This document shows positions 1 to 50,401 of a DNA stretch of 50,401 nt, one piece after another. This DNA is from a virus. A program made the position numbers and the translations under genes. Below the pieces are notes generated by a model that saw nothing but the letters and a program-made list of their open reading frames with translations, did not search any database and was not told the DNA's origin. The number at the start of each line of letters is the position of its first letter. Position 1 is the first letter of the stretch. The stretch lies in the IMG/VR virus record IMGVR_UViG_3300028549_001760; one strand, given 5' to 3'.

Positions 1-255
1 AACAAGCGCGTATGACCTGGTGGCCAACGCGGTGACTTCCGCTCATATCGTCGACGGGGCCGTGGTGGCGTCAAAGATCTTTGTTGAAAACCTGGCCGCT
101 ATTATTGGGAATCTGTCTGCCATACAGGGCGGCGCTGATGATCCAAACAACTATTGGATGCTTACGGATTTCCCTGGCAAGCCGGTCGACCGGATGGTCG
201 GCGAGTTACGGGCTGGCGGGGCAAAGTCCTTTATCAAGGTTACTCCTGACAGCAC
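1..255. repeat. Terminal overlap copy 1: identical to 50147-50401 (circular or circularly permuted assembly; unique genome length 50146 bp)
   Basis: Read directly: aacaagcgcgtatgacctggtggccaacgcgg... restarts at 50147 and runs unchanged to the last base (50401 = base 255). Confidence 0.95.
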
Positions 256-1471
256 CCCTGGCGCCGATGATGGCGACCTGCAGGTTGAAGGGCTCGACCT
301 GATAATGAAAAACGGCAAGATCCAAACCTACAAGGGCGTTGGCGAGGCCCGGCGCAGGTTTTCCCAGGAAGATACCTCTTTAGTGTGGACCAAGATAGAT
401 GAAAACGGTGATCCAATATTTGATATTGCCAGAATCGACCTTGATCCGGACGACTCTGTAAAGTTTACAAATATTTACTCAATCAATGCGGTGTCTCCTG
501 AATTGACAGAGCTTGAGGTTGTTACAAATTGCCCAGGGGACACAGCGATTTGCCAATATGATGGGAAGATATATATCCCTCACATGCTGGACACTGTTAT
601 GCTGGTTAATGTTTTGGATCCAGCTAATAACTCATATAGCAGCATAAGCTTGGGTGCTGGCGTTAGTGACACAACTAGAGCGGCAATTATAGTAGATGGC
701 ATTTTATACATGGCGCACGACGCGAACCGCGTGTACTGGCAAGACCTTACCACCGTCAACACACACGGTAATGTGTTTTACACAGGAGCAGGCGGAGGTG
801 AAGTGCTAAAAGGCCAAATACCATGCTTAAATGGTCAATTATATTTATATAACGCATGGGGGTATCATGTCTTTGATATTGCTACCAAGGCTTTTGTTGG
901 GCACGTTGCGCGTGCTTCGACAAAAATACTTGCTGCCGCTGATGAAGCATCTGGCTCTGTTTTTGATGTGGGGTATGATTCTAGTGGCGATTACTGGTTT
1001 TATTACGGTAGTGGTGGCATTGGGTTTCCTATGGACCCTGATAACGGTTATGCAAGGCTTACTATAACCATCGCTGGCTCGTGTGGGATTGTTGTCTCTG
1101 ATGGTATTGTCACTATTTTTTCTGGTGGCACTGGGGCGAATGATTATATCGCCCGCTGGGACATCCTTAATGAAGAATGGTTGCCGTTTTCTCACAATAC
1201 CATTAAGGTGGCTTGCGCTGGCCTCCTTGGTCTTTACGGCGGCAAGTATTTCTTTGAGGGGCTTGATGACGATGGCCGGCACGGTATTTATTCTTTCAGC
1301 CCGCTGCTTGATTTGTTTGAATACTACGGCGAAAAACCGAATGGCCTGACCAGCGCTCTTTCCTGTTTTGCGAATGGGTGGTTGTATTCAGAGGACTCTG
1401 ATGGTACAATAAATAGCACAGAGATTATGAGGAAGTATCCAGTGGGCGGCAATGCGCGTTACGCCCCGTAA
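1..1471 (+). CDS. Tail fibre / receptor-binding protein, C-terminal part of the gene that starts at 47193 (wraps through the window junction)
   Basis: No stop from base 2 to TAA 1469-1471. GTG at 20 equals base 50166, which is 991 codons after ATG 47193, so the two parts are in frame. The joined gene is 4425 nt (1474 aa). Repeated strands DGKIYIPH, DGILYMAH, NGQLYLYN, GGKYFFEG, NGWLYSED suggest a Kelch/beta-propeller-like distal domain. Confidence 0.75.
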   Translation, partial: TSAYDLVANAVTSAHIVDGAVVASKIFVENLAAIIGNLSAIQGGADDPNNYWMLTDFPGKPVDRMVGELRAGGAKSFIKVTPDSTPGADDGDLQVEGLDLIMKNGKIQTYKGVGEARRRFSQEDTSLVWTKIDENGDPIFDIARIDLDPDDSVKFTNIYSINAVSPELTELEVVTNCPGDTAICQYDGKIYIPHMLDTVMLVNVLDPANNSYSSISLGAGVSDTTRAAIIVDGILYMAHDANRVYWQDLTTVNTHGNVFYTGAGGGEVLKGQIPCLNGQLYLYNAWGYHVFDIATKAFVGHVARASTKILAAADEASGSVFDVGYDSSGDYWFYYGSGGIGFPMDPDNGYARLTITIAGSCGIVVSDGIVTIFSGGTGANDYIARWDILNEEWLPFSHNTIKVACAGLLGLYGGKYFFEGLDDDGRHGIYSFSPLLDLFEYYGEKPNGLTSALSCFANGWLYSEDSDGTINSTEIMRKYPVGGNARYAP

Positions 1472-1488
1472 ACACGAAAGGGAATAAT

Positions 1489-1761
1489 ATGAGAAAGATC
1501 GTAGGCACCTGCACCAAAGAAGAACTTGATAGCTTTAACCTGATCAGAACGAAAGTAGAGACGGCCAACCAGGCTCTTGCCATGAAGGTCGAGGATCCAA
1601 GCCAGCAAGATCAGTTTGTCAAAACAGTCCTGGATGTCCTGGCCGAATACAAGTGGCTAGAGCGCGACTGGTGGAACGACAAGATGAAACGGTTTGGAAT
1701 AACCAACGGGAAAGATCTTCATATCGACTTTTTCACTGGAGACTTATTCCTGAATGAGTAA
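1489..1761 (+). CDS. Hypothetical 90-aa protein, first gene of the CXXX-repeat/rSAM cassette (possible accessory or chaperone)
   Basis: ORF track. AAAGGGA lies upstream of the ATG. Third codon positions are G/C-rich like neighbouring genes. The stop overlaps the next start by 8 nt (ATGAGTAA, 1754-1761). No family recognised. Confidence 0.55.
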   Translation: MRKIVGTCTKEELDSFNLIRTKVETANQALAMKVEDPSQQDQFVKTVLDVLAEYKWLERDWWNDKMKRFGITNGKDLHIDFFTGDLFLNE

Positions 1762-3055
1762 TGAAAAGACCTACACGCAAATGTACCCATTAGTGGGGAA
1801 AGACATCCGTATTGTCGACGTCAACGAGACGATGGCCGAAGCCAATGTGCAGCGGGCTGTCATCGGAGCTGCGGCGAAAACATGGACTAGCACCCCGCAG
1901 TCTGGCGGCGAGATCCGCGTTTCTCACATGGAGGATTTGCGTTTAGCGGTCACTAACTTAGTTCGTACAGTCAGCTTTTCTGACCCGACGCTAAGTGCTT
2001 ATGGAAATGTTAGGGCTCTTCACATGGAAGAGGTCCGACAGATAATTGACGACCGCAGGAATAACGCCGCGTGTGTGAATTGTTCATCCTCATGCGCCAG
2101 GGCGTGTAGCTCTGCTTGTTATTCCGGATGCGAAGTTGATTGCTCGGCCGATTGTATGGACTGTTGTACGGGGGCTTGCGATACGGCTTGTATCGAAGAA
2201 TGTTCGTCAAATTGCCTTGGCGACTGCACGAGCGTTTGTCGAAATGGTTGCGCGAATGCTTGCAAAACCACTTGTACGGCGGCGTGTTCTGGCGATTGTA
2301 ATGTGGTTTGTTACACAAGCTGCAGCGCAACTTGCTCGACTGTTTGTACTGGCGGCGGCTGTCAGGGCACTTGTTCTGGCACTTGCAGTTATGCTTGTGA
2401 TACTATTTGCATGGCAAGTTGTCAGTTGGGGTGCGGCGGCTATTGTACGACGAATTGTTATACCTCCTGCAATGGGTGCCGAGCCGCTTGTAAAATGGGC
2501 TGTGGATTTGCTTGTATTGGCGTATGTGATACTTCCTGCGCCGGATATTGTTATACAACCTGCTCAACTGGTTGTGCCACTTACTGTACTAGAGTATGTA
2601 CTGGCTCTTGTGGCGAAGCCTGCAATTCCGGTTGTTCACCTAGCTGCACAACCCATTGCTATACTGGATGCAGCGTAACGTGCTACATGAGCTGCAATTC
2701 AAATTGCTATACAGCCTGCACAACTGGTTGCGTCCAAACCTGCGCCGTTAATTGCTCTACTACCTGCACAAATGCTTGCTATGCGAATTGTAGCGGCACC
2801 TGCAATGTCGGCGACTGCAGTTCATCGTGCGATTATTCTTGTGACTTAAATTGTTATTACAATTGTGACTCGACTTGCGATACGCAATGCTACGCTTCTT
2901 GCAGCAATAACTGTTATGGCTCATGCTCGGCGGCCTGCAGCACTAATTGTTCAACTGGGTGCATAGACAGCTGCCGCGCCACCTGTAACCAGTCTTGTTA
3001 TTCTGGTTGCGCTAATTCAAACCGCCACATGGCAGACCAAGGATCTTATGCTTGA
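1754..3055 (+). CDS. Giant CXXX-repeat cysteine-rich protein (433 aa), presumed substrate of the adjacent radical SAM enzyme
   Basis: Residues 1-106 have no Cys. Residues 107-419 carry about 80 consecutive X-X-X-C units by hand count (CSSSCARACSSACYSGCEVDC...NQSCYSGC), followed by a 14-aa Cys-free tail. The gene has 8-nt overlaps with both neighbours. Confidence 0.8.
   Translation: MSNEKTYTQMYPLVGKDIRIVDVNETMAEANVQRAVIGAAAKTWTSTPQSGGEIRVSHMEDLRLAVTNLVRTVSFSDPTLSAYGNVRALHMEEVRQIIDDRRNNAACVNCSSSCARACSSACYSGCEVDCSADCMDCCTGACDTACIEECSSNCLGDCTSVCRNGCANACKTTCTAACSGDCNVVCYTSCSATCSTVCTGGGCQGTCSGTCSYACDTICMASCQLGCGGYCTTNCYTSCNGCRAACKMGCGFACIGVCDTSCAGYCYTTCSTGCATYCTRVCTGSCGEACNSGCSPSCTTHCYTGCSVTCYMSCNSNCYTACTTGCVQTCAVNCSTTCTNACYANCSGTCNVGDCSSSCDYSCDLNCYYNCDSTCDTQCYASCSNNCYGSCSAACSTNCSTGCIDSCRATCNQSCYSGCANSNRHMADQGSYA
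2072..3010 (+). repeat. Coding array of about 80 four-codon units, each ending in TGY (Cys)
   Basis: A TGC/TGT codon recurs every 12 nt with only four register breaks (MDCC, TGGGC, NGC, NVGDC). Spacer codons are diverse, so the period is at protein level rather than a DNA tandem repeat. Confidence 0.85.
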
Positions 3056-4199
3056 TAATATACCGAACTTCCAGGGCTTGAATGTCACGTTCAATACAGG
3101 CGAGGACTGCAATCTCGCCTGTAAGTATTGCTACGAGGTTGATAAACGCAAGTCAGTCTTGTCCCTGGATTATGCAAAAAAGTTTGTTGATATCCTGCTC
3201 GATGATCCAGACCCCATTGGTGTTATGGGGACCGACAACGAGTGGATGCTTAACAGCGGTCTGATTCTGGATTTTATCGGCGGCGATGCGCTAATGCACC
3301 CGGAGCTTGTTGATTCGATCCTTCGGTATTTCGTGCAGAAGGCTGTCATCAAAAAGCACCGCTGGGCGTTCAACTGGCGCGGATCCATTTCCACCAACGG
3401 CACTCTGTTTGAGAATCCGGAAGTACGCAAGTTTATTGAGCGGTGGCACCGGAATCTTTCTATCGGCGTTAGCGTTGACGGATCTCCGGCGCTGCATGAC
3501 TCTAACCGTATCTACCCTGATGGCCGGGGGAGCATGGCTAAGATCAGAGAATGGTGGGACTGGTATCGAAATTTCTATCCTGATGGCAGCACGAAGTCTA
3601 CCCTGTCAGAGGCATCGATCCCCTATATCTATGAATCCCTAGTGTTCATGCGTGAAGAAATGGACATCAAGTACGTCAATCAAAACTTCATCTTCGAGAA
3701 CATGGAGCTTGACCAGGCAGATCTGGACCTGCTCGATGAACAGATGGCGCTCGGAGTGGCCTATGTAAAGGCCCACCCTGATATGTACTGGGGTATGATC
3801 GACAAGCGGTTTGCTGACGCCGTTCCGTACCCGGAGAATGTTGCGGCCAATCCCTGTAAATCCTGGTGCGGATCTGGATCCATGCCGGCTCTTTCTCCAG
3901 ATGGCAAGATCTATCCGTGCTTCCGGTTCCTCCCGCACACCCAGGCGCAGCACGTTGATATGTCGGTCGGCGATATCTGGACCGGATTTGAGCGCAAGGA
4001 TAATTTCGTCTGCATCCGCGGTAAGACACGCGAAGTAATCAGCCCAAAGAAATGCCGGGAATGCGATATAGAATCCGGCTGCGCATGGTGTATCGCTGGA
4101 AGCTATTCTGAAACCGGCGGGGCAACCAGGCAAACATATATCTGCGAAGTGCAGAAGATCCAGACGAAATGGGCTAAGATCTATTGGGGGGGTGTATGA
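3048..4199 (+). CDS. Radical SAM enzyme with C-terminal SPASM-type auxiliary cluster domain (peptide/protein maturase)
   Basis: CNLACKYC (CX3CX2C) at residues 21-28, with TGC at 3108-3110. IGGDALMHP is a GGE-like SAM motif. C-terminal CGSGSMPALSPDGKIYPC and CRECDIESGCAWC...C are SPASM-like. The start overlaps the CXXX gene stop (ATGCTTGA). Confidence 0.9.
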   Translation: MLDNIPNFQGLNVTFNTGEDCNLACKYCYEVDKRKSVLSLDYAKKFVDILLDDPDPIGVMGTDNEWMLNSGLILDFIGGDALMHPELVDSILRYFVQKAVIKKHRWAFNWRGSISTNGTLFENPEVRKFIERWHRNLSIGVSVDGSPALHDSNRIYPDGRGSMAKIREWWDWYRNFYPDGSTKSTLSEASIPYIYESLVFMREEMDIKYVNQNFIFENMELDQADLDLLDEQMALGVAYVKAHPDMYWGMIDKRFADAVPYPENVAANPCKSWCGSGSMPALSPDGKIYPCFRFLPHTQAQHVDMSVGDIWTGFERKDNFVCIRGKTREVISPKKCRECDIESGCAWCIAGSYSETGGATRQTYICEVQKIQTKWAKIYWGGV

Positions 4200-4417
4200 A
4201 AATAATTGGCATGGTCAACAATGATTCCCAGGCGATCGACTTCCTGCCTGGGCTTCCGCCACAGGTAGAAAACGCCTTGGACCATATCATCGAGAAGCAT
4301 GACATCGTAATTCGGGTACCTGGCACTTCTATGGAGTACGTTATCACGGCCAAGAAGCTGGCCGATGGCTCATTCCACCTTTTTTATAAAGGGACTGAAT
4401 TGACAGTGAGTGTCTGA
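4196..4417 (+). CDS. Hypothetical 73-aa protein, last coupled gene of the cassette
   Basis: ATGA overlap with the rSAM stop (4196-4199). The ORF track frame is 4184..4417; I prefer the MKIIGMV start. Third positions are G/C-rich. Confidence 0.5.
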   Translation: MKIIGMVNNDSQAIDFLPGLPPQVENALDHIIEKHDIVIRVPGTSMEYVITAKKLADGSFHLFYKGTELTVSV

Positions 4418-4444
4418 ATCGGCGATGATGCAACCGGGGGCAAT

Positions 4445-4855
4445 ATGGCAAATAAACCGACGCTACTAGACTTGATATGGGGGTTGCCGCAGCATATTGT
4501 TGCCGGCTTTTTGTTTTTGGCGCTATGTATTGGCAAGAAGATTGATTCAATCGAGCGCCTGGATAACGGGGTCTGCGTAATCCGGATCCGTTCGTTCCAT
4601 GGTGGAGTCAGCCTTGGCTGGTTTGTTTTTGTTGGTGTAATGGCTATGCCCGAAGTGATAATGCACGAGTCGGGCCACTCTTGCCAATCTATGACGCTTG
4701 GTCCGCTGTATTTAATCATCATAGGGTTGCCAAGCTTTTTATTTGCCACGATTGCTACAATACAAGGGCAAGCGGCGCGAAGATGGTACTACCGGATGTA
4801 TACCGAGGCATGGGCCGACAAACTGGGCGGCGTTACCAGGGGGATATACCTATGA
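4445..4855 (+). CDS. Small polytopic membrane protein with HExxH motif (putative membrane zinc peptidase)
   Basis: Hydrophobic segments IVAGFLFLALCI, GWFVFVGVMAM and LYLIIIGLPSFLFATIA. HESGH lies between them. A family assignment (DUF3267-like zincin) is from memory only. Confidence 0.55.
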   Translation: MANKPTLLDLIWGLPQHIVAGFLFLALCIGKKIDSIERLDNGVCVIRIRSFHGGVSLGWFVFVGVMAMPEVIMHESGHSCQSMTLGPLYLIIIGLPSFLFATIATIQGQAARRWYYRMYTEAWADKLGGVTRGIYL

Positions 4856-5136
4856 GGGCCACATACTACCTGCTTATTTCCTTCCTGCTCCTTGCCAGGG
4901 CAATCCTTTTCTTTGTCCAGCACCACCAAATTGGCCATAGGAGAAATGATCAAACCCTTGCGGGGATCTTTGTCCTTTTCGCCCTTTCATACGCCATTTA
5001 TGCCATCCGCCCGTTAGAATACGGGCCGGATCATTTCGTCTACTGGCTTGAGATAGGTCTGGACGGGGCCATTGGCATTATCACCGCTATCGAAACGCTG
5101 AAAGCCTACTCGCAGGCAGTAAAGGGTAAGAAATAA
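4852..5136 (+). CDS. 94-aa membrane protein with three hydrophobic segments and a charged C-terminus (holin-like topology)
   Basis: ATGA overlap with the upstream stop (4852-4855), in frame with track ORF 4681..5136. The sequence is MRATYYLLISFLLLARAILFF...AVKGKK. Confidence 0.5.
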   Translation: MRATYYLLISFLLLARAILFFVQHHQIGHRRNDQTLAGIFVLFALSYAIYAIRPLEYGPDHFVYWLEIGLDGAIGIITAIETLKAYSQAVKGKK

Positions 5137-6047
5137 TGTCTGGAATTCCTCTTTGGGAACAAGCCCTTACCATCCTTATGTGGATGGTTGCCGCTACGAT
5201 TGGCGGCCTGGTCCTGGTGATGCTTCTGCGTCTTATTGGGAAGAAACGGTCGGTGACGATCCCTACACCAGCTGGTCCACTTGAGATTGGCAGCGAGGTT
5301 GGCGGCGTTGAGGTTGAAGCGGCCACCCAACAAAACGGGGTTGTGCCGGCGATCCCCCCTTCCGGCAAACAGGGGAATCCTCATATCACCTGCCCTAATC
5401 TCAAGGATGTCATCATCGTTTTCAGGAACCGTGATGACCTTAAGGATCATATAGCCAGGATCAAAGAAGAGTCACGCGCGAAAGTGACAAGGATCGAAAC
5501 GCACGAGCTCCCGAAGGAAATCATGCAGAGCGCCGAGGATACTATCGCCAGGGTAATCGGCATGATGGAATCCGGATACCTTACTTTGCTTAAAGAGCAG
5601 GGAATTGCTAAGAGTGAGGTGGCGGCCACCGAGCAATTCAAATTGTATCGGATAATCGTCAAGGCGATTCAGCCGCACCTTATTCTTGAGTCGCGGCGCA
5701 TGATGAAGGAAAATGGCTGGATCAAGAAAGAAACAGACGGGACATTCAACACCTATGTGTCGCGGAAAACGGAAGATTTTCTTTCGACCGTGACTGACCT
5801 CTTGAATGACTATTATGTTATCGAGGCGCCGACCAGGTCAGAGCTTTACAGCTTCATGATGACCAAGGTAAGGCAGCCAAACGGTATCCTTGAAACCGTA
5901 GCTGAAACCATCCGGGGGTTCTTGGTCATCGCCAAGAACTGGCGCAAAGAGATTGAAAAAATCAACACCGAAACCGATGAACAAGTCGAGATCCTGCAGC
6001 GCCGCATGGAAAAAGAAATGTCAGAGATCCTGGGCGGGGAGTGCTAA
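5136..6047 (+). CDS. 303-aa protein with an N-terminal transmembrane anchor, function unknown
   Basis: ORF track. TAATG overlap with the upstream stop. The TM segment is ILMWMVAATIGGLVLVMLLRLI; the remainder is helical-looking and charged. Confidence 0.6.
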   Translation: MSGIPLWEQALTILMWMVAATIGGLVLVMLLRLIGKKRSVTIPTPAGPLEIGSEVGGVEVEAATQQNGVVPAIPPSGKQGNPHITCPNLKDVIIVFRNRDDLKDHIARIKEESRAKVTRIETHELPKEIMQSAEDTIARVIGMMESGYLTLLKEQGIAKSEVAATEQFKLYRIIVKAIQPHLILESRRMMKENGWIKKETDGTFNTYVSRKTEDFLSTVTDLLNDYYVIEAPTRSELYSFMMTKVRQPNGILETVAETIRGFLVIAKNWRKEIEKINTETDEQVEILQRRMEKEMSEILGGEC

Positions 6048-6206
6048 GTGGATACGGACGAAGCGATCTTGTTCGGCCGCCACTTGGAGAATACAGTGCC
6101 GGCCGCCGCCAGGACCGAACTGATGATGGTCATTGTCGCGCTGTACCAAGAGGTAGAGCGCCTGAAAGGGGAAACCGATGGGATCTCAATTTTGGGATGT
6201 GCCTAA
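6048..6206 (+). CDS. Small 52-aa ORF (GTG start), below the ORF-track size cut-off
   Basis: GTG follows immediately after TAA 6045-6047. About 71% G/C at third positions by hand count, like real genes here. It overlaps the next gene by 29 nt. Confidence 0.4.
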   Translation: MDTDEAILFGRHLENTVPAAARTELMMVIVALYQEVERLKGETDGISILGCA

Positions 6207-6792
6207 TAGCGGGAATGTAGACCAGGACAACAACTCGGTCGAGCGCTTGCTTGGGCTGCTGATTTCGACCTATAGCAAGGGCAAAGACAAGCGCACGATT
6301 TACCGTGAGACTTGCGGCCCTTCTTCTTTCGAGGCTTGCCTTGAGTCTCATGGCATTGACCAGAAAAGCAAGTGTGGGCTGCTCCAGCCGAGCGATTTCT
6401 ACACCATGCTCATGAACGATCGGCGCTACATCAACAATCCAGCCTGGGACCAGCCGGTGAACCGTTTCATCGAAGCCTACCCACTCCTGGCCCGCCTTTT
6501 GTACCCGGAAGCCATAGAGTGCAAGGTTGAGTGGTACCCGAAGGTCGGTGACCTGGCCGCCATAGTCCGCGAGGTTTTGCTGCGGCCGAAAACGAACTGC
6601 ATACTTAATTTGAAGGTGCCTGGGCACTACATCGCGGCGTTCCATATCAGCGACACGGACATCGTTTACTATAACGATTCTTGGAAGGCTGATACCTGGA
6701 ATCCGTCGCCGAATCACAAGCGATCGATCCCCCTCGCGGACCTTGTTAAAAATATCAAGGTTGGCCTGGTGTCGATCAGAAAGTTGGGATGA
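6178..6792 (+). CDS. Papain-fold cysteine peptidase-like protein (C39-like): candidate processing peptidase or cell-wall peptidase
   Basis: RETCGPSSFEACLESHG resembles the Cys motif of C39-like peptidases. A later PGHYIAAFH and YYNDSW supply candidate His and Asp/Asn. AGGGGA lies upstream of the ATG. Confidence 0.5.
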   Translation: MGSQFWDVPNSGNVDQDNNSVERLLGLLISTYSKGKDKRTIYRETCGPSSFEACLESHGIDQKSKCGLLQPSDFYTMLMNDRRYINNPAWDQPVNRFIEAYPLLARLLYPEAIECKVEWYPKVGDLAAIVREVLLRPKTNCILNLKVPGHYIAAFHISDTDIVYYNDSWKADTWNPSPNHKRSIPLADLVKNIKVGLVSIRKLG

Positions 6793-7055
6793 TGACTGGC
6801 AAGAAAATCGGTAAATCGGTCATGTGGGTGGTCGGGTTTCTGGCGTTCCTCGGAGTCGTGCTATTGTGTATATTCAGGGGAGCGTCCGACAACGTGACCA
6901 TGTACGCTATGGGCGCTCTGGTGGTCCACTTTGGCATTGGGATGGGCGTTGACCTTGGCGCCAAGATCCAGCGGTCAATCTGGTACCGTCGTGAGCTTGA
7001 TTCAAACGCTCGACCGAATAATGTGGAAAATTTTCCACAAGGGACATCAAGCTGA
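6789..7055 (+). CDS. 88-aa two-TM membrane protein with a charged tail (holin-like)
   Basis: ATGA overlap at 6789-6792. TM segments VMWVVGFLAFLGVVLLCIF and AMGALVVHFGIGMGV. The C-terminal VENFPQG is encoded by palindrome copy 1. Confidence 0.5.
   Translation: MMTGKKIGKSVMWVVGFLAFLGVVLLCIFRGASDNVTMYAMGALVVHFGIGMGVDLGAKIQRSIWYRRELDSNARPNNVENFPQGTSS
7022..7039. promoter_or_regulatory. 18-bp palindrome TGTGGAAAATTTTCCACA, copy 1 of 10
   Basis: Perfect palindrome. It lies inside the 3' end of 6789..7055 and at the opening of the frame that leads to 7193..7531. Confidence 0.8.
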
Positions 7056-7192
7056 ACAGTGAAAGCGGATTCCTTGAGTCGTTAATTTTCGCACTCAACA
7101 AGCGGGGGTGCGATGTAACGGCCGAGGATCTGCGTCAGCGGGTTTGTGAGGATGATCCCTGCACCCGGTATTACATAGAGAAAAATCCTACC

Positions 7193-7531
7193 ATGTACCG
7201 GGCAGGGACTTCTATTTTCGATTGTCCGAACGTACTACTTGTCTGCGTGAACAGGCTACTGGGGATGCGCCATTGCGCGATGCAGTCTTTTGTCCTGGTT
7301 CAGGACTTCAAAAAGATTCTTGAGAAAGGGATGATCCTGGCGTTTGTCTCTTGGGATAAAGAACCAGCGCATGGGGTGTGTATCCATGCCGTATCGAAAA
7401 ACGAAAAGGGCTTATTGCAGGTAGAGGTGTATGATCCGCTCTATGGCGACAAGATCGTTACCTCTGATGATGTTCGATACAAGTTTAAGCCCGGGCAGAC
7501 ATATCGAAAGGTCGTTTATGTGGTGTCGTAG
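7193..7531 (+). CDS. Hypothetical protein with a second Cys...His...Asp pattern; the true N-terminus may lie upstream
   Basis: ORF track (112 aa): IFDCPNVLL, AHGVCIHAV, VYDPLYG. The same frame is open and coding-like back to 7022 but has no ATG/GTG/TTG (see finding). Confidence 0.5.
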   Translation: MYRAGTSIFDCPNVLLVCVNRLLGMRHCAMQSFVLVQDFKKILEKGMILAFVSWDKEPAHGVCIHAVSKNEKGLLQVEVYDPLYGDKIVTSDDVRYKFKPGQTYRKVVYVVS

Positions 7532-7988
7532 ATGCGTAGCTTTTTTATTGGTCTTGGTGTTGGGATCCTCATTACTGCACTCGGCTTCGCCATCTGGTGT
7601 TTGGCTCCCGGCGGAAAAATACGCGGAACTTTTGAGGCTTTACGCCGAGCTCAAGAATCTGAACTTGAGCTTGCAAGAAACCTTGGACGAGTCAACCGCT
7701 TATACAGCGACCTTGTTGACCGACATCGAGAGAATATCGAGCGAATTGGTGAGCTTCAAAGAGAGGTATCAATCCTTGATTCAACAGCACGAAGCCTTGC
7801 AGCTACTCTTAGCCGAGGCCGAGTCACAGCTAGCGAGTCTGCGGCAGCAATTGAAAGATTTGGAGATATCCTTCGCGGCCTCGATAGTGGAAGCCAGGAC
7901 AGAAGCGCTCCCGTTGATTATCTCCCTTGGAGCCCTGTCAGTGATAGAGTTCGTGGCTATACTGATCCTGATAAGCCCAAAGCAATAG
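7518..7988 (+). CDS. 156-aa protein: N-terminal signal/TM, Leu/Glu/Gln coiled coil, C-terminal TM (last gene of the plus block)
   Basis: In frame with track ORF 7431..7988. GAAAGG lies 6 nt before ATG 7518. G/C at third positions is about 62%, against about 38% for the competing frame 7532..7993 (hand counts). The frame choice is uncertain. Confidence 0.45.
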   Translation: MWCRRCVAFLLVLVLGSSLLHSASPSGVWLPAEKYAELLRLYAELKNLNLSLQETLDESTAYTATLLTDIERISSELVSFKERYQSLIQQHEALQLLLAEAESQLASLRQQLKDLEISFAASIVEARTEALPLIISLGALSVIEFVAILILISPKQ

Positions 7989-7993
7989 AATAA

Positions 7994-8020
7994 AACAGGG
8001 CAGCATTACGCCGCCCTGTT
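7994..8020. terminator. Hairpin between the convergent gene blocks (putative bidirectional intrinsic terminator)
   Basis: aaCAGGGCAGC-attac-GCCGCCCTGtt has an 11-bp stem with one mismatch. T-rich sequence follows on both strands (tttgtc / ttattctat). Confidence 0.6.
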
Positions 8021-11082: not shown

Positions 11083-11667
11083 CTATATATTGCCGGTAGC
11101 GTTCAAAGAATCTAGTATTTCGTCGTGCCCTTCCATGTAATACTGGATATAAATATAACCAACAGTCGAGGATAGTGCTGCCGCTTCTATTAGCACACAA
11201 TCAAGATCCGCTGGCATGGCTGCCTTGTCTGTCCATATAGCCAATAACTTGCGATCCTTTTGCAGCAAAGACATCATGTAGTACCGCGCGTCCGACCATA
11301 TACTTCCGCGGTTTATGTTATCAATGAAGTTACTGGCTGGCCCATAGTTATTTGTTAATAACTCTTTTAGCCGATTGTATTCTGTTACAAGACCTTCACC
11401 AAAAGCTCCGCAGTTTATATCCTTGCTGATAAGCCGGACTGAAAACAGCCCTATTTCGGGGTGGATATTTACCAGGAATATATCAAAGGCGCTTGTCGCT
11501 TGCGGTGCCTTGGTCATGATCCAGATCGTCTCGCTATTGTCTGCGAGATACATTTCCGGATCGATAGTCTGGAGTTGTTCTAGGGTCATTCCCTTTTCAA
11601 ACCCGAGGGGTCCGGCGAACACGGACATGGCCATAATGAGCATGATGAATACTAAAAGTTGTTTCAC
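11083..11667 (-). CDS. Secreted protein (N-terminal signal peptide), function unknown
   Basis: GTG start 5 nt after AAAGGAG, with a GTGA overlap with the upstream stop. The N-terminus is MKQLLVFIMLIMAMSVFAGP. Confidence 0.6.
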   Translation of the reverse strand: MKQLLVFIMLIMAMSVFAGPLGFEKGMTLEQLQTIDPEMYLADNSETIWIMTKAPQATSAFDIFLVNIHPEIGLFSVRLISKDINCGAFGEGLVTEYNRLKELLTNNYGPASNFIDNINRGSIWSDARYYMMSLLQKDRKLLAIWTDKAAMPADLDCVLIEAAALSSTVGYIYIQYYMEGHDEILDSLNATGNI

Positions 11668-12539
11668 GGTTTCTCCTTTGCCAGGATCTTTTTCCCGACA
11701 GCGGCATTGAATAATGCCGATATATCTACTTGGACTAGATCGTCGCGATTTTCTTGGTCCTCGACGTCCTGGGCGATGCGCTTATCTTTCAAGCGACTTA
11801 GGTAAACGGTACAGTTCGGCTTGTGCTTCCAGGCTCCGCAGCTTTCGCAGGGCTCGTCAGCAATTGTGGCTGGTGACATGCTCAATTTTGGGATCATGCC
11901 ATGGAATACTGCGTATCCATAGCCGGCCTTTTCTTTAACGCGTACAAAGGATTTCACTTCATCAACCGCGTCAGCGAAAAACAATTTGATACATCGCAGT
12001 ATCTCGGTAAGGCCCAGTTGGTTTGAATCGCCCTTGAGTAGCGCAGCTTCTTTGGCGCCCCATGATGGGGATACCCTCTCGCCTCTGATTTCAACAGCCT
12101 TTAGCTCGTAATACTTGACGAATGCGTCCCGTAGTAGCTTCCGTTCCTCCTTCTCCATCGTCTCGCCCTCTGGAGTGGGCATCTTTTCTTTCTTAACAAA
12201 CTCATTGTCGGATACCAGGGCGCAGTAGGTATCCTCGATGAACCGAATGTAAGCCCGAGATCCGTTCCCGCTGCTTAATACTTTCTTCTGGATTACGTTG
12301 GCGCCGGTCAGCTTGTCCATCCTATTGGCCAGTTGTCTTTTCTCTATGCCAAGGATCGGTAGCTCGGCCAGGATATGCGCGTAACATAGCCAGAACCATT
12401 CTCGTTCATCTAATATCACCTTCTGCATTTTACCTGATAGGTAAAAATCTGCAATGAATCTGATCAGCACGGCGTCGATAACATCAAGGCCCATTTCGAT
12501 TAAACGCTTCTGGCTGAACCCTTCGATGTTCCATTTCAT
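11664..12539 (-). CDS. Putative replication organiser / winged-helix DNA-binding protein (function tentative)
   Basis: 291 aa with an ATGA overlap with the helicase gene. The N-terminal third looks like a DNA-binding domain. The function is assigned mainly from its position next to the helicase. Confidence 0.4.
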   Translation of the reverse strand: MKWNIEGFSQKRLIEMGLDVIDAVLIRFIADFYLSGKMQKVILDEREWFWLCYAHILAELPILGIEKRQLANRMDKLTGANVIQKKVLSSGNGSRAYIRFIEDTYCALVSDNEFVKKEKMPTPEGETMEKEERKLLRDAFVKYYELKAVEIRGERVSPSWGAKEAALLKGDSNQLGLTEILRCIKLFFADAVDEVKSFVRVKEKAGYGYAVFHGMIPKLSMSPATIADEPCESCGAWKHKPNCTVYLSRLKDKRIAQDVEDQENRDDLVQVDISALFNAAVGKKILAKEKP

Positions 12540-47192: not shown

Positions 47193-50100
47193 ATGTTATT
47201 TGCCAGCAAAGATAAAAACGGCGATGCGCTACCCGCGGAGCTTATTGCGGCCCTTTGGGACCCCGCAACCAAGATCACGGCTCATGTAGCGATTGACTTT
47301 GCTGGCGATGGCACCTTTGTCGAAGTGCCGTCAGACGATGTCCTGTCAATAGATTTCTCCGATGAAGTGGAAGGACAGAACGGCCGCGCTTGCTCAAATA
47401 AGTGTTCTGTTGAGTTAAGTAATTATAACCATCGCTACTCCCCACACAAGTTTACCGACGACTACACGCCGTCGATCATGCACTTCAACGGGCCTGATCA
47501 GGGCGATGGCCGCGGTAACTTGCGACCAGAGCGCCGGATCAGTATCGACCTGCAGGTAGATGGCTTCTCGTCTGTCGTTCCGGGCCGATACTATGTCCCT
47601 ATTTTTGAAGGGTTGATTACGGGTGACGGCTTTGTTGAGGACGTAGGCCATGGAAATATCAACAAGGTAAAGCTGGCCGCCAACGACTATGCTATCCTCT
47701 TGAAGAAAAAGGATCCCAAGGGAGTGAAGAAAGTAATCGCCGGCCAGTGGGTGGAAGAAACCCTGGCCTGGCGCGACTGTAAGGTTTCGGACCCGGCTGA
47801 CCAGGCTAACTCCATTATCCACAAGCTGGTGGCTATGGGTGACCCTGACGGATGGATCACTGTTGACGCCGAGACGTTTAATGTCCCGATCGAGTACATT
47901 CCGATCGATACCAATATGTGGTCAGAAATCGCCGAGCTTGCCGATTTCATGCACTGTACCGCCTCGTTCTTTGGCAAGACACTTTTCTTTGGCGACTCGG
48001 AATTCAACACAGTGACCGCCTCGCCGATCGAGTTTACCAATTCTCATTACGAGGGAATCAACCACCGCGACAACGCAGACAAAATATACAACAAGCTTTC
48101 GATCGAGTTTGGCCAGTACATCAAGCTGCCCAAGACTGCGCTATGGATGCACCCGAATTCCGCCGAGTCCGGAATCATACAGGATGGCGGCTGCGTGTAT
48201 GACCTGTCTGACGCTGAAAAGATTCCTGACCTGTTCAACGAAATGGTTATCTACAAGGCACCGTACACCGCCGAGGTAAACACGCCGACCACCCGCCCCG
48301 GCTATGGCGGTACTGGTATCGTGGACACCAAGGCCAACGCAGCGAACTACGAAGTTGTCACCGCAGAGAATATTTCATACCACTATTACGAAAACGGCCT
48401 GGATACCGAATTGCTTATTTTCGACACCACCACCTACCGTGACGCTGCCATTATCCGCGCAGCGATTGGCGGCCGGACATCGGTGCGTGTCACCAAGCTT
48501 GTCGTGTTCGGTGAGCCGGTTATCCAAGAGAAGGCGATCACTTCCTTTATCGACAACGCTGATTCGATCGCCCTGTATGGTACCAAGATCAAAGAATATA
48601 AAAACAAGTACATGAACCAGGAGATCATCACCTTCCGCAGCCAACAGTGGACCAGGGATCGGGCTTGGCTGCAGATCGCTATCGAGCAAAACGCCGTGCC
48701 GCGCCGCGACTACACCTTCTCGCTTTCCATGCCCTTGATCATTGCCCGCTCTGGCACGCGCGTGCGCCTGCAGGAGACATACCAGGGATCAGAGATCAAT
48801 GTGATGGTGAACCTGCAGAGCATTGGAATAAAATACAATGGCCAAAAGGCCGAGTGGACCACGACTTTCAAGGCCGTGGAATACAAGACAGAATCCGGAG
48901 CGACGACGACCTGGTCTGATACTTCTCCGCGGCCGGATATCGCCAAGCCGGTGAAACAAATCCTTATCGCGCTTGGCCAGAGCGTCGACCAGGCATTGCC
49001 CTACAACAAGGGCGATCTGATGTCGTACCGCTATGAGAAAGAATCCATTGTCCTGAACGATTATTATATCGCCGTTGTCAGCAAAGGCCCGGATGATGCT
49101 TTCTCGTGGGATGACTGGGAGCTTGTTGACGCCGAAAATCAGTTGTTCAAGCAGACGTTGTTTATCAGGTCCGCTTCTACTCCCGACACTCCTACCGGGG
49201 TAGCTCCGGAGGGATGGACAGATATTGTTCCGGACGGTACTGACCCGGTCTGGCAGTCAACCGCAACGCTACGCAAGATCAACTCAACGGTGACCGTGGT
49301 ATTCATCGACTGGTCGACGCCGCTTTCCATGGCCTCAATCTCTGGTGGCACCCCGGTACCAGGCACGGTCACCAACTTGAGCGCCGTAGCCTACCAGGAT
49401 TATATCAAGATGAACATGACGATCCCTGCCGGCGCCGTGTCCTACATTTTCCAGCGTTCCAAGGACGAGGGGGCCAGCTGGGAGGATATAACTGGCACGG
49501 CTGATGGTGAGGCTGCCTGTTCAGAGTCAGGATATATGTGGCCGTTTAACCGGGCCACCGACAAGTACCCTGAAAAAACACTTGAGCTTTCTGGCGTGGC
49601 CCCGCTATCCAAGTATCGATTCAGGGCAAAGGCGTCGAACGTACTCGGGCAGACATCGGCCTCATGGTCCTCGACTGTCCCGGTTGATGATACCGCCTAC
49701 AAAACCTGGAAGCCGGTGGCCCCGACTGGCGCCGCTTCTCAAACCGCTATGCGCGCAGCCTCAATCTCCTGGGTGAAGCCTGATGTTTATAATATTGCCC
49801 GCCATGAGGTTCAGATCAGCAAGGACAACACCACCTGGTTTGAGCCGGCTGTAGGGCTGAATGTCTATCCGGAGACGGTAGAAGAAGTCCTTGTGTCCAA
49901 TGAGGGCAACTGGCGGCAAAGCAATACGGCCAATCTTTTCAAGACGACGCCGATCGAACAGTGGAATCAAGAGCTTCCGCTTGAAGGCCAGGGCGCCGGT
50001 TTGGCCGTGAACACGGTTTATTATTACCGGATGCGCACCGTTGTCGATGTCCCGCAAGCCGCCGACGATGCACCGAATGGAGTCTATGCGTCAAGTGGCA

Positions 50101-50401
50101 AGCGCGCAGGGCCGTGGTGTACTGGTATCCTGGCTATGGCCAAAGCAACAAGCGCGTATGACCTGGTGGCCAACGCGGTGACTTCCGCTCATATCGTCGA
50201 CGGGGCCGTGGTGGCGTCAAAGATCTTTGTTGAAAACCTGGCCGCTATTATTGGGAATCTGTCTGCCATACAGGGCGGCGCTGATGATCCAAACAACTAT
50301 TGGATGCTTACGGATTTCCCTGGCAAGCCGGTCGACCGGATGGTCGGCGAGTTACGGGCTGGCGGGGCAAAGTCCTTTATCAAGGTTACTCCTGACAGCA
50401 C
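47193..50401 (+). CDS. Tail fibre / tail tip protein, N-terminal part (open to the window end; continues at base 256 after the overlap and ends at 1471)
   Basis: AAGGAG lies upstream of ATG 47193 and there is no stop to base 50401. This ORF is missing from the track, presumably because it has no stop in the window. Two fibronectin-III-like segments lie near 49370-50050 (…YRFRAKASN…, …YYYRMRTV…). Confidence 0.75.
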   Translation, partial: MLFASKDKNGDALPAELIAALWDPATKITAHVAIDFAGDGTFVEVPSDDVLSIDFSDEVEGQNGRACSNKCSVELSNYNHRYSPHKFTDDYTPSIMHFNGPDQGDGRGNLRPERRISIDLQVDGFSSVVPGRYYVPIFEGLITGDGFVEDVGHGNINKVKLAANDYAILLKKKDPKGVKKVIAGQWVEETLAWRDCKVSDPADQANSIIHKLVAMGDPDGWITVDAETFNVPIEYIPIDTNMWSEIAELADFMHCTASFFGKTLFFGDSEFNTVTASPIEFTNSHYEGINHRDNADKIYNKLSIEFGQYIKLPKTALWMHPNSAESGIIQDGGCVYDLSDAEKIPDLFNEMVIYKAPYTAEVNTPTTRPGYGGTGIVDTKANAANYEVVTAENISYHYYENGLDTELLIFDTTTYRDAAIIRAAIGGRTSVRVTKLVVFGEPVIQEKAITSFIDNADSIALYGTKIKEYKNKYMNQEIITFRSQQWTRDRAWLQIAIEQNAVPRRDYTFSLSMPLIIARSGTRVRLQETYQGSEINVMVNLQSIGIKYNGQKAEWTTTFKAVEYKTESGATTTWSDTSPRPDIAKPVKQILIALGQSVDQALPYNKGDLMSYRYEKESIVLNDYYIAVVSKGPDDAFSWDDWELVDAENQLFKQTLFIRSASTPDTPTGVAPEGWTDIVPDGTDPVWQSTATLRKINSTVTVVFIDWSTPLSMASISGGTPVPGTVTNLSAVAYQDYIKMNMTIPAGAVSYIFQRSKDEGASWEDITGTADGEAACSESGYMWPFNRATDKYPEKTLELSGVAPLSKYRFRAKASNVLGQTSASWSSTVPVDDTAYKTWKPVAPTGAASQTAMRAASISWVKPDVYNIARHEVQISKDNTTWFEPAVGLNVYPETVEEVLVSNEGNWRQSNTANLFKTTPIEQWNQELPLEGQGAGLAVNTVYYYRMRTVVDVPQAADDAPNGVYASSGKRAGPWCTGILAMAKATSAYDLVANAVTSAHIVDGAVVASKIFVENLAAIIGNLSAIQGGADDPNNYWMLTDFPGKPVDRMVGELRAGGAKSFIKVTPDS
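50147..50401. repeat. Terminal overlap copy 2 (identical to 1-255)
   Basis: Direct comparison of the two ends, base by base over the printed lines. Confidence 0.95.

Follow-up and report, generated by a model that had tools for sequence, protein, structure and literature searches.

The window analyzed here is the whole 50,401-nucleotide stretch of viral DNA in IMG/VR record IMGVR_UViG_3300028549_001760. Its last 255 bp (50147..50401) form a direct terminal repeat that matches positions 1-255 exactly, and the window therefore represents a complete phage genome of 50,146 bp. Reconstruction on the circularized genome joins positions 47193..50401 (N-terminal part) and 1..1471 (C-terminal part), both on the + strand, into a single 1474-aa ORF that spans the terminal repeat; the same gene is called on a sister contig. 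The tape-measure gene (41227-47148) is followed by this ORF and then, where the tail genes of this 50.1-kb tailed phage end, by a cassette of three genes. The sequence-only reading had inferred that the second cassette gene is next to a tail fiber; the upstream neighbor is the 1474-aa ORF, which stands directly after the tape measure and has no match to a PHROG or other family. No integrase was found among ten further ORFs of the window, and comparison of positions 1-8000 with 50,697 GenBank phages revealed no DNA similarity.

All three cassette genes lie on the + strand. The first, which has a GGGA ribosome-binding site ahead of its ATG, encodes a 90-aa TIGR04116-like protein (the partner, 1489..1761); the second, also starting with ATG, encodes a 433-aa CXXX-repeat protein (the target, 1754..3055 including the stop codon), in exact agreement with the extent and length first read from the letters; and the third encodes a 383-aa radical-SAM (rSAM)/SPASM maturase (3048..4199). 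The target start overlaps the partner stop by 8 nt (ATGAGTAA), and the target stop overlaps the rSAM start by 8 nt (ATGCTTGA). Partner, target and rSAM enzyme thus constitute a translationally coupled three-gene cassette with the target in the middle. The six genes downstream of the rSAM gene (77, 136, 94, 303, 204 and 88 aa) have no Pfam, NCBIfam or PHROG match, and these genes, including the 136-aa HExxH protein, were rejected as cassette members because they are without homologues in other cassettes.

Period-4 Cys frames can arise as shadows of other repeats, as is evident from Tweety-like mycobacteriophages, in which tblastn matches are opposite in strand to an annotated tetrapeptide-repeat gene, and gene callers often skip or mis-frame CXXX ORFs. 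That the target is likewise a chance or antisense frame over some other repeat is nevertheless scarcely credible. Its non-repetitive N- and C-terminal parts are conserved as protein in dozens of loci, and homologues that are 41-50% identical share with it the MSNEK start as well as the N-terminal domain, the register of the cysteines and 'CxSGCANSxR' at the C-terminus. The array can be aligned among these homologues over ~6 units at its start and ~7 at its end, with a middle that varies in length. Furthermore, both ends of the ORF overlap same-strand flanking genes, its synteny with partner and rSAM gene is tight, its Cys codons are mixed (TGC 41, TGT 39) in the absence of a DNA repeat, and the model of its N-terminal domain is confident. 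The same 433-aa gene, with one substitution, is present on a near-identical contig. ORF 1754-3055 is a real gene. The Tweety-type matches were themselves rejected as homologues, being antisense to an annotated gene with no rSAM gene nearby.

The target protein and its cysteine period

The target contains 80 cysteines, from C107 to C419, and residues 1-106 and 420-433 are Cys-free, as the sequence-only reading had stated. Within the array (residues 107-419; 2072..3010, +), successive cysteines are four residues apart in 73 of 79 gaps, which bears out the earlier hand count of about 80 Cys at almost every fourth residue. When residues 107-419 were shuffled 10,000 times, gaps equal to 4 averaged only 8.4 (sd 2.7), with a maximum of 22. 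The six remaining gaps fall at five places, CVNC (107-110), CMDC together with CC, CTGGGC, CNGC and CNVGDC, giving 73 CxxxC, three CxxC and one CC gap among the 79 and in-register runs of 1, 7, 1, 16, 10, 28 and 17 Cys. The four slips of register reported previously are all among these, but CVNC had been missed. The spacers consist mostly of S (43), T (40), G (29), A (27), N (20), Y (18), D (14) and V (12), the same eight residues that had been named before; D and E together contribute 18 of the 233 spacer residues, and a conserved Asp/Glu partner is absent.

No tandem repeat was detected in 1700-3100 by Tandem Repeats Finder even at a score of 30, and the best direct-repeat families in the target DNA are only 60-78% alike. 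The Cys period is therefore kept at the protein level, as had been proposed. The target array has no super-period, with an identity of 0.10-0.16 at every lag; an 8-residue super-period is present in the arrays of Margulisbacteria. AF2 yields no confident fold for the array, which is nominally helical at a pLDDT of 30-60, and a Foldseek search of the full-length model against the PDB and BFVD gave no match (best E about 1), a result that was probably hampered by the low-confidence array.

A composition of 26% Cys and small polar spacers is like that of metal-binding proteins. The target might accordingly be a thiol-rich metal- or cluster-binding or redox-buffering protein, in which Cys thiolates chelate Fe, Zn, Cu or Fe-S units and the rSAM enzyme carries out some other reaction, such as conversion of Cys to formylglycine or dehydroalanine, epimerization, or cluster insertion. 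However, metallothioneins and Fe-S motifs typically have CxC and CxxC patterns, which the strict i/i+4 period does not resemble, and this explanation appears distinctly improbable.

The Cys-free N-terminal domain (residues 1-106; 1754..2071, +; alignment A4) consists of three copies of a ~33-aa motif, [FW]TDPxLxxGxx[IV][KR]AxH[ILV]xELRxA, ending in HMEEVRQIIDDRRNNA. AF2 modeled residues 1-105 with a pLDDT of 81-94 and helices at 20-36, 56-66 and 88-102; the domain is thus confidently predicted to be a folded triple repeat, in keeping with the earlier impression of a folded-looking N-terminus. No match to it was found in Pfam, nor in the PDB by sequence or profile search. While a word-indexed search with the N-domain returned nothing, the exhaustive HMMER search that was used instead gave 52 matches among 1.84 billion representatives, many of them at the extreme C-terminus of proteins of 1000-3000 aa, and the N-domain is homologous to the C-terminal module of giant FG-GAP/Ig-domain proteins.

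These properties bear on a further explanation, namely that the target is a giant RiPP-like precursor in which the N-domain is a leader or handle and the array a modified core that is released or exported to act as a bioactive product or to modify surfaces, serving as phage cargo (a 'moron') or in host takeover rather than as a part of the virion. The N-domain, however, is a repeat module found elsewhere at the end of giant proteins and not a known type of leader, and neither the target nor its close relatives have a signal peptide. The RiPP-like reading is considered unlikely, although the relatives described below also provide points in its favor.

At the other end of the protein, the Cys-free tail ANSNRHMADQGSYA (3011..3052, +) is conserved: N421, S422 and R424 are invariant, and D428 nearly so, in the phage-type homologues (alignment A2), and the pattern 'S/T-S/T-R-x-G-x-D-x-G' is found in the Margulisbacteria versions as well. 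The only PHROG matched by the target is phrog_6085 (function not assigned; E 1.3e-11), and no Pfam match was obtained for the target, the partner, the larger relatives or the stand-alone N-domain proteins. The target itself is without homology to any named tail protein in Pfam or PHROG, an observation that counts against a role in the tail.

The maturase, its partner and related cassettes

The rSAM enzyme carries the cluster motif C21-x3-C25-x2-C28 and seven SPASM cysteines, arranged as C274-x11-G-x4-C291, C336-x2-C339-x5-C345-x2-C348 and C366. The rSAM sequence on its own retrieved nothing from IMG/VR, and an alignment of homologues was used instead; the radical-SAM and all seven SPASM cysteines are invariant in 25 homologues. 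The Pfam scores for Radical_SAM (22, cut-off 29.5) and SPASM (20.6, cut-off 21.5) both fall just under the gathering score, and the enzyme matches phrog_1802 with an E of 1e-46. Its closest solved structure is CteB (5WGG, E 2e-18), with which it aligns over CteB residues 102-440 only.

In NCBIfam, the best matches of all three cassette genes are the three models of the CXXX-repeat system, the existence of which the sequence-only reading had suggested correctly. The maturase scores 274.1 bits (E 2e-81, aligned over 3-354 of 359) against TIGR04115, 'radical SAM peptide maturase, CXXX-repeat target family', which is 145 bits above the next family yet below the curated cut-off of 350. The partner scores 21.2 bits (E 2e-4, aligned over 2-89 of 90) against TIGR04116, 'CXXX repeat peptide modification system protein', and the target 16 bits (E 0.009) against TIGR04117 (Syntroph_Cxxx), a 'paralog'-type model of 98 positions built on Syntrophobacter sequences; the cut-off is 50 bits in both cases. 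Since all three genes are under the curated cut-offs, they represent a divergent sister clade or relative of the system, and NCBI's rule would not admit them as members. The Margulisbacteria homologues behave alike in these searches (maturase 274.8 bits, partner paralogue 24.6 bits). Taken together, the three genes very probably constitute a CXXX-type rSAM cassette. The CXXX-repeat radical-SAM system is said to have been defined in silico by Haft and Basu in 2011; it has a database name, but no chemistry or function established for it is known to us. No modification of any CXXX-repeat system was reported in the literature searched, and no paper on CXXX chemistry or on phage versions was found in it, most subscription journals being outside the search. 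The earlier statement that no such phage protein is known to be described stands within the same scope.

The families that follow TIGR04115 are PapB (129 bits), a QhpD-type family (TIGR03906, 79 bits) and the SCIFF maturase (77 bits), all of which are thioether formers, and this ranking favors thioether formation by the cassette enzyme. SPASM enzymes also include the anaerobic sulfatase maturases, and some related cassettes are accompanied by a second rSAM gene, YydG-like or short, which would suit the metal-binding explanation; yet the sulfatase maturases reach 40 bits, and the thioether-forming families score far above them.

In the AF2 model of the partner (pLDDT 90.8), a small sheet of three strands closes a long helical hairpin. 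Comparison of this fold with the PDB gave nothing significant (best E 0.6, all helical hairpins), and a PDB profile search gave no match. The possibility that the partner is a PqqD-like RRE, a winged helix, was rejected on the basis of the predicted hairpin-plus-sheet fold. Nearly all related loci encode homologues of the partner, frequently as a pair within one cassette.

Related cassettes are found in uncultured phages, jumbo phages and termite-gut Margulisbacteria, and they form a clade that is large and, in the literature as searched, undescribed. Upstream DNA of sufficient length was available for 36 independent rSAM-homologue loci, and 34 of them have a same-strand CXXX ORF within 2.6 kb of the rSAM gene, upstream of it in 33; in the reverse test, an rSAM gene was present in 6 of 6 N-domain-CXXX loci with downstream DNA. 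That 34 of 36 loci pair the target with a dedicated enzyme and partner is a reason to expect covalent maturation of the array, and it speaks against the metal-binding explanation. The outcomes among homologues that the sequence-only reading had named as refuting its claim are not observed: the Cys period is conserved, and an rSAM gene is almost always adjacent. The number of Cys per target has a median of 75 and ranges from 21 to 138, so that the 80 found here are not exceptional for the clade, and the longest arrays (138 Cys) occur in ORFs of 750 codons. Across the family, 2084 of 2417 spacers are three residues long, and the Cys spacing is the only conserved feature of the array, no spacer position keeping a particular residue. 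The sources (termite gut, rumen, human feces and Enterobacterales hosts) are all anoxic or facultatively anaerobic.

In one relative (L004), the gene order is that of the window, with tape measure, giant tail ORF, partner, target and rSAM gene in succession; in another (L014), the preceding 849-aa ORF has sub-threshold matches to the PHROG 'tail protein and host specificity' and to Pfam Phage_Tail_Tip; and a third cassette (L010) adjoins gp25-like and P2-I-like baseplate genes. At the N-terminus of four larger homologues (P0125, P0129, P0160 and L036), ~330 residues resemble the C-terminal portions of PHROGs 3285, 3639, 5339 and 19691 (E 1e-9 to 1e-17), whose annotation is 'minor tail protein' or 'virion structural protein'. 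Cultured relatives exist among jumbo phages of Erwinia, Cronobacter and Salmonella, and the CXXX ORFs of the cultured jumbo phages CR5 and Phobos have annotated virion structural proteins on one side and a tail assembly chaperone on the other. In these cultured phages the CXXX ORFs are unannotated, and published proteome searches could therefore not have found their products. Several phage loci have glycan genes, and no recognizable tail genes, next to the cassette, and PHROG and Pfam searches revealed no recognizable tail genes among the neighbors of L016, L018, L019 and L020.

Several of these contexts would be compatible with the RiPP-like precursor. Cargo genes classically occupy the position behind the last tail gene, where a tail module ends, and glycosyltransferase, Stealth and KDO genes stand beside some phage cassettes. 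Furthermore, the enzyme falls in the SPASM peptide-maturase radiation, whose characterized members make RiPPs. The Ca. Termititenax genome has eight cassettes, and those of Margulisbacteria lie amid housekeeping genes, outside prophages, while a human gut relative (L002) has a Tat-like RREFF N-terminus in place of the N-domain. Conversely, no leader peptidase, exporter or other transporter is conserved with the cassette across related loci, and arrays of up to 138 Cys are far past any known RiPP core. The fusion of some relatives to tail-protein modules likewise speaks against a released or exported peptide, as do the jumbo Erwinia-type phages, which are strictly lytic and keep these genes between virion structural genes.

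Proposed product of the cassette

The reading that we prefer regards the target as the substrate of the cassette, the array as a thioether-stapled rod, and the intact protein as a tail accessory; as a complete chain, it has nearly an even chance of being correct. In an infected anoxic cell, the partner would hold or present the target, and the SPASM enzyme, by way of a 5'-deoxyadenosyl radical, would join many of the 80 Cys sulfurs to nearby carbons as thioethers. This choice of chemistry derives from the nearest characterized relatives, PapB, CteB and QhpD, which make thioethers, and we judge cross-linking of the array by the rSAM enzyme to be evenly balanced between right and wrong. Because only the Cys spacing is conserved, with no fixed residue at any spacer position, a particular side chain would be a less likely acceptor than the next Cys or a generic carbon such as one of the backbone. 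Covalent stapling would turn the array into a rod whose length varies and which, unlike a rod stabilized by disulfides, would survive in the reducing, protease-rich gut-type habitats that are home to these phages. The protein would stay whole, with the N-domain as a docking or oligomerization module, and might be used as a tail accessory, either fiber or adhesin.

That the product is a whole protein, and not a leader plus peptide, is suggested by the N-domain fold and its homology to giant proteins, by the lack of a conserved peptidase or exporter, and by conserved ends around a variable middle, as in collagen-like fiber proteins. A virion- or tail-associated structural role for the target is proposed tentatively, at somewhat less than even confidence. 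The Margulisbacteria copies outside prophages imply that the system does not need a virion. Also counting against the preferred reading are the NCBIfam scores of all three genes below the cut-offs, the low-confidence model of the array, a partner fold unlike an RRE, the 1474-aa ORF without a family match and the glycan genes beside several phage cassettes. Finally, it is conceivable, though rather doubtful, that in phages and some bacteria of anoxic habitats the cassettes make a new kind of structural protein, a variable-length rod with dozens to more than 100 Cys, one at every fourth residue, in a continuous, rSAM-made thioether ladder, borne as a fiber or adhesin on phage tails and perhaps on ectosymbiont surfaces.

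Should the array prove to be thioether-stapled and tail-borne, we would know of no earlier example of a virion component matured by a radical-SAM enzyme. It would then illustrate a way to stabilize extracellular assemblies where disulfides cannot exist, that is, an anaerobe's redox-proof substitute for disulfide cross-linking, with RiPP chemistry at whole-protein scale in a virion. For enzymology, the clade is unusually tractable: it pairs one enzyme and one small partner with a substrate that offers 80 potential sites, and the cultured jumbo-phage relatives make genetics and virion proteomics feasible. With regard to annotation, CXXX genes are systematically missed or called in the wrong strand or frame, including in RefSeq phages and Ca. 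Termititenax.

Comparison with known systems

The cassette shares with the NCBIfam CXXX system a SPASM rSAM enzyme, a ~90-aa partner and a target with Cys at every fourth residue, and its maturase and partner align with the respective models over their full length. It differs in that its target has 433 aa, with a folded 106-aa N-domain and a conserved C-terminal tail, and in that it is phage-borne, in the tail region. A classical RiPP pathway starts from a short precursor whose leader is bound by an RRE; here the substrate has 433 aa and its N-domain is predicted to be a folded triple repeat, and an RRE (PqqD-like winged helix) was not found in either enzyme or partner. The metallothioneins, with their clustered CxC, CxxC and CC motifs, are likewise unlike an array in which 73 of 79 gaps are CxxxC.

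Among thioether-forming systems, PapB/PapA (freyrasin) offers the second-best enzyme family and the same i/i+4 spacing. PapB forms six Cys-S to Asp-C-beta thioethers, i to i+4, in repeated CX3D motifs, tolerates many spacings and can act without a leader (PMC9413430; PMC12715619). The window enzyme nevertheless scores far under the PapB cut-off of 340, its array has no conserved Asp/Glu partner, and its substrate is a 433-aa protein with 80 Cys, whereas PapA is a short peptide. CteB, the SCIFF maturase, is the sole solved structure found by sequence, and its rSAM and SPASM domains align with those of the window enzyme, which is, however, without a counterpart of the first ~100 CteB residues, a region that serves CteB as its RiPP-recognition element. 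SCIFF peptides also differ from the target, having six Cys in about 45 residues.

QhpD is also a SPASM rSAM enzyme, and it introduces several thioethers from Cys to Asp/Glu into a polypeptide that is retained in a larger assembly. It thereby offers the strongest precedent for thioether stapling, by an rSAM enzyme, of a structural polypeptide as opposed to a cleaved peptide, although the homology is remote and its substrate QhpC, of about 80 aa, is periplasmic and cofactor-bearing, with few cross-links and no repeat array. In overall design, the target is comparable to the repeat-rod fibers of phages. There is no sequence relationship to these, and the period of 4, its basis in Cys and the dedicated rSAM enzyme set the target apart; yet, like the collagen-like Gly-X-Y phage fibers, it combines conserved terminal domains with a short-period repeat of variable copy number (21-138 Cys here), its gene lies in the tail region, and some of its relatives are fused to tail-protein modules.

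Cysteine period and reality of the target gene

The ORF at 1754-3055 (+ strand; the target) begins with ATG and encodes 433 residues, 80 of which are cysteines; these run from position 107 to position 419, leaving residues 1-106 and 420-433 Cys-free. Successive cysteines lie exactly four residues apart in 73 of the 79 pairs, compared with 8.4 ± 2.7 (maximum 22) when residues 107-419 were shuffled 10,000 times, and the earlier observation of a cysteine at every fourth residue is thus borne out. Six exceptions to the register occur at five places, namely CVNC, CMDC-C, CTGGGC, CNGC and CNVGDC; the slips listed in the sequence-only reading are all present, and CVNC had been overlooked. The spacers consist mostly of S, T, G, A, N, Y, D and V, which matches the composition given in that reading, and the cysteine codons are TGC in 41 cases and TGT in 39. 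Tandem Repeats Finder detected no tandem array at 1700-3100 at score thresholds down to 30, and the families of direct repeats are just 60-78% alike. As had been proposed from the sequence alone, the period thus resides in the protein and not in recently duplicated DNA. In the alignment of phage-type homologues (A2), the short proteins possess a single 'GGY-x4' break near the array centre, unlike the window target with its several small register slips; this break could be a hairpin turn joining two half-arrays.

The overlaps of the target with the adjoining genes exclude an artefactual ORF, as does its conservation, and the chance of such an artefact is negligible. A GGGA ribosome-binding site lies ahead of the partner ORF (90 aa, 1489-1761, +), 17 nt past the stop of the large ORF upstream; the partner's own stop overlaps the target ATG at 1754 (ATGAGTAA), and the target stop at 3053-3055 overlaps the ATG at 3048 (ATGCTTGA) of the 383-aa radical-SAM/SPASM enzyme (rSAM, 3048-4199, +). 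Target homologues of 41-50% identity retain the MSNEK start, the Cys-free N-domain terminating in H[LM]EE[VA]RQV[IV]DDxxNxARC, and the tail CxSGCANSxRxGxDxG. Of the array, they keep the ~6 opening and ~7 closing CXXX units, and the stretch between these varies in length. The same 433-aa gene, with one A-to-V change, is present on a sister contig (JGI 3300033512).

The same partner protein is recorded on six contigs (JGI, Logan, ENA). CXXX ORFs have elsewhere been missed or mis-framed by gene callers: a 667-codon ORF of Ca. Termititenax (L008, 5686-7686) is recorded as two genes of 174 and 201 aa in other frames, and the CXXX ORF of L005 (7216-8001) as small fragments. In GenBank/RefSeq, those of jumbo phages are unannotated or replaced by an opposite-strand 'hypothetical protein' (CR5_157, Phobos gp167/gp168). 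Array matches by tblastn in cluster-F-type mycobacteriophages (Tweety 54, DeadP 60, Che8 57) were rejected as homologues, being shadows on the strand opposite to annotated repeat genes; the gene 54 region of Mycobacterium phage Tweety is 3001-3576 of L052.

The target, partner and rSAM as a conserved triad

The rSAM carries CxxxCxxC at C21, C25 and C28 together with a complete seven-Cys SPASM motif, and its radical-SAM and SPASM cysteines are invariant in 25 homologues. Its top NCBIfam match is TIGR04115, 'radical SAM peptide maturase, CXXX-repeat target family', at 274 bits (curated cut-off 350; aligned over 3-354 of 359), followed by PapB (129 bits), the QhpD type (79), the SCIFF maturase (77) and CcpM (73). 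The partner matches TIGR04116, 'CXXX repeat peptide modification system protein', from end to end at 21 bits, and the target scores 16 bits against TIGR04117, the curated cut-off being 50 bits for both; the target also matches phrog_6085, of unknown function (E 1e-11). Since the Margulisbacteria homologues give the same score picture on these models, the cassette belongs to a coherent sister clade and is not one deviant. Judged by these profile matches, the cassette is very probably related to the CXXX-repeat system defined in silico, while scoring below all three curated thresholds, and the matches to TIGR04115, TIGR04116 and TIGR04117, sub-cut-off as they are, support the sequence-only interpretation of a CXXX-repeat system with an rSAM.

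By sequence, the sole solved relative of the rSAM is CteB (5WGG, E 2e-18). Because the alignment begins at CteB residue 102, the N-terminal region of CteB, which is its RiPP-recognition element, is without counterpart in the window enzyme. In the AF2 model of the partner (pLDDT 90.8), a three-stranded sheet closes a long helical hairpin. Nothing significant was found for this fold in the PDB, and since the best matches (E ≥ 0.6) are unrelated helical hairpins, the partner, by its predicted fold, is not a PqqD-like recognition element.

In the metagenome protein collection, 460 rSAM relatives were found at E < 1e-10, the best 120 being 48-67% identical. Loci were examined from contigs carrying such relatives, IMG/VR, GTDB genomes and GenBank phages, and co-occurrence was scored in independent loci with at least 1.5 kb 5' of the rSAM, as an ORF on the rSAM strand, no more than 2.6 kb away, in which 10 or more Cys gaps have the period of 4. 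Such an ORF lies beside the rSAM in 34 of 36 loci, upstream in 33. The reverse search, with the N-domain/CXXX alignment, returned the same three IMG/VR contigs and three new metagenome contigs with downstream DNA, and an rSAM is present in all. The sequence-only reading had suggested a search for the same gene pair in other phages and prophages, and this pairing is found in both directions. It had also named loss of the Cys period in homologues as a ground for refutation; across the family, 2084 of the 2417 Cys-Cys spacers are three residues long. No CXXX ORF lies near the rSAM homologues of two loci, L017 and L051 (41-42% identical), and in L017 no Cys-rich ORF was found in the 8 kb that flank the rSAM on each side.

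Partner homologues are present in almost all loci, often two per Margulisbacteria cassette, and the clade's CXXX ORFs hold 21 to 138 Cys, with a median of 75, such that the 80 of the window target are typical, not extreme. No conserved residue was found at any array spacer position across the family. The target, the partner and a SPASM rSAM form a conserved triad, in which the spacing of the cysteines is the sole constraint on the array. Margulisbacteria arrays have, in addition, a super-period of 8 residues in which every second Cys is followed by Gly, whereas the window array has none.

Genomic settings and the N-domain

The cassette is carried by uncultured siphovirus-like phages and by jumbo-phage contigs of 195-388 kb, and cultured jumbo phages of Erwinia, Cronobacter and Salmonella have an rSAM of ~25% identity with two short tandem CXXX ORFs. 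In Cronobacter phage CR5 (L003, 1142-1540 and 1501-1953) and Erwinia phage Phobos (L053, 4593-4985 and 4989-5396), each of these ORFs has a ~50-aa head and 21 Cys; they are bordered by annotated virion structural proteins on one side and by two rSAM genes on the other, and a tail assembly chaperone follows at a greater distance. A tblastn search with a CR5 CXXX ORF matched 38 GenBank records. Cellular carriers are Ca. Termititenax, other termite-gut Margulisiibacteriota (4-5 rSAM/CXXX loci per MAG), Treponema and other Spirochaetales, a rumen Oscillospiraceae MAG and Elusimicrobiota. Among the genome contigs L021-L050, Ca. Termititenax aidoneus possesses 8 such loci on 7 contigs, one of them with a 752-codon ORF of 138 Cys; in the one Ca. 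Termititenax cassette checked, housekeeping genes lie on either side, along with a further YydG-like rSAM.

In the window, bases 1-255 and 50147-50401 form an exact direct terminal repeat of 255 bp, and the sequence is therefore a complete 50,146-bp phage genome. It encodes a terminase (30668-32119), portal, major head protein, minor tail protein and a 1973-aa tape measure (41227-47148), and, on the opposite strand, a replication/recombination block of helicase, ParB-like protein, exonuclease, Erf and SSB; no DNA similarity to 50,697 GenBank phage records was found with bases 1-8000. A 1474-aa ORF without PHROG match starts at 47193, directly after the tape measure, and spans the terminal repeat; the ORF listed at 20-1471 is its final part. 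The gene order is consequently tape measure, giant tail ORF, 90-aa partner, CXXX target, rSAM and small unconserved genes. None of the window genes 3' of the rSAM is conserved in other cassettes. This includes a 136-aa ORF (4445-4855, +) without family match, which, with HESGH (HExxH) between hydrophobic stretches, may encode a small membrane metallopeptidase.

As in the window, the cassette of L004 comes after a tape measure and one giant tail ORF. That of L014 is preceded by an 849-aa ORF with sub-threshold matches to the PHROG 'tail protein and host specificity' and Pfam Phage_Tail_Tip, and gp25-like and P2-I-like baseplate genes lie a few kb from the cassettes of the jumbo contigs L010 and L015. 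In L001, a human-faeces phage, a 193-aa homologue lies amid large ORFs without family assignment. Judged by gene position, the tail-gene association is recurrent across unrelated phage lineages, not universal. Sugar genes are also found as neighbours: L016 (3660-5707) and L020 (5731-6858) have glycosyltransferase and Stealth-type transferase genes, including two beta-1,4-glycosyltransferases and a Stealth CR2/CR4 protein, and next to the cassette of L010 lie KDO-pathway genes (11511-13574), with KdsA/KdsB-like and transaldolase-like members. Given these neighbours, the Ser/Thr-rich array may in addition be glycosylated. In a human-faeces phage-bin contig (L002, 2219-2743), a 32-Cys CXXX protein has a Tat-like N-terminus (SRREFFKNAAK...) in place of the triple-repeat domain, its gene lying directly 5' of an rSAM of 30% identity.

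Cellular cassettes outside prophages, the Tat-like N-terminus and the glycan-gene neighbours would suit a giant RiPP-like precursor with a released product, or a cargo function; however, processing and export genes are absent and the jumbo-phage copies sit among structural genes, and we consider this explanation unlikely.

The N-domain is composed of three copies of a ~33-residue motif, [FW]TDPxLxxGxx[IV][KR]AxH[ILV]xELRxA. With a 16-sequence alignment, AF2 modelled residues 1-105 at pLDDT 81-94, with helices at 20-36, 56-66 and 88-102; the array (pLDDT 30-60) is nominally helical, with no usable fold. Foldseek with the target model returned nothing significant from the PDB and BFVD. An exhaustive HMMER search with residues 1-126 recovered 52 proteins, 16 of which combine N-domain and array. 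Elsewhere, the module occurs as stand-alone ~106-aa proteins and, mostly, as the very C-terminal end of proteins of 1000-3000 aa, one of which has FG-GAP and bacterial Ig-like domains. It is present in the window (1754-2071) and in the proteins P0141, P0143, P0148, P0155, P0170, P0145 and P0167, and neither a Pfam model nor a solved relative was found for it. In P0125, P0129, P0160 and L036, ~330 extra N-terminal residues match the C-terminal portions of families that PHROG labels 'minor tail protein' and 'virion structural protein' (E 1e-9 to 1e-17), and an insert in P0130 matches a different virion structural PHROG.

Proposed chemistry and comparison with known systems

Thioether formation is the chemistry of both CteB and QhpD. 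PapB likewise joins a Cys sulfur to the Asp C-beta across CX3D, accepts many spacings and can act independently of a leader (PMC9413430; PMC12715619). By analogy with these nearest characterised enzymes, there is about an even chance that the chemistry on the array is of this kind, in which case the rSAM would install many Cys-derived thioether bonds along it. Since no spacer residue is conserved, a specific side chain is a less likely acceptor than a backbone or otherwise generic carbon, or than the next Cys. Such a ladder of thioethers would remain stable in settings where disulfides do not, in keeping with the anoxic sources. A thiolate metal-binding protein, with the rSAM performing another reaction, would sit poorly with the strict CxxxC pattern and with the enzyme's family affinities, and is distinctly improbable.

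The target is read as a mature structural protein, rather than as leader plus core, because its folded N-terminal module elsewhere ends giant proteins, conserved ends flank a length-variable repeat, the cassette has no conserved peptidase or exporter, and relatives are sometimes fused to tail-protein modules. The protein would thus remain whole, as a covalently stapled rod on the phage tail; this virion role is put forward tentatively, at somewhat below an even chance. Specialists in radical-SAM/RiPP enzymology or phage structure would be surprised by a tail-linked protein that has 80 potential sites for an rSAM, and the cultured jumbo-phage relatives make the function of CXXX repeats directly testable.

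A literature search, thin on subscription journals, found no publications on this clade or on the features that set it apart. The TIGR04115-04117 system works like the window cassette and is related to it, yet the latter scores below NCBI's membership thresholds. Unlike in that system, the target is protein-sized and has a triple-repeat N-domain and a conserved C-terminal tail, and the cassette is carried by phages in their tail regions and is expanded to multiple copies in Margulisbacteria. The CXXX-repeat kind is thus already named, though functionally uncharacterised, and the window clade is a new form of it.
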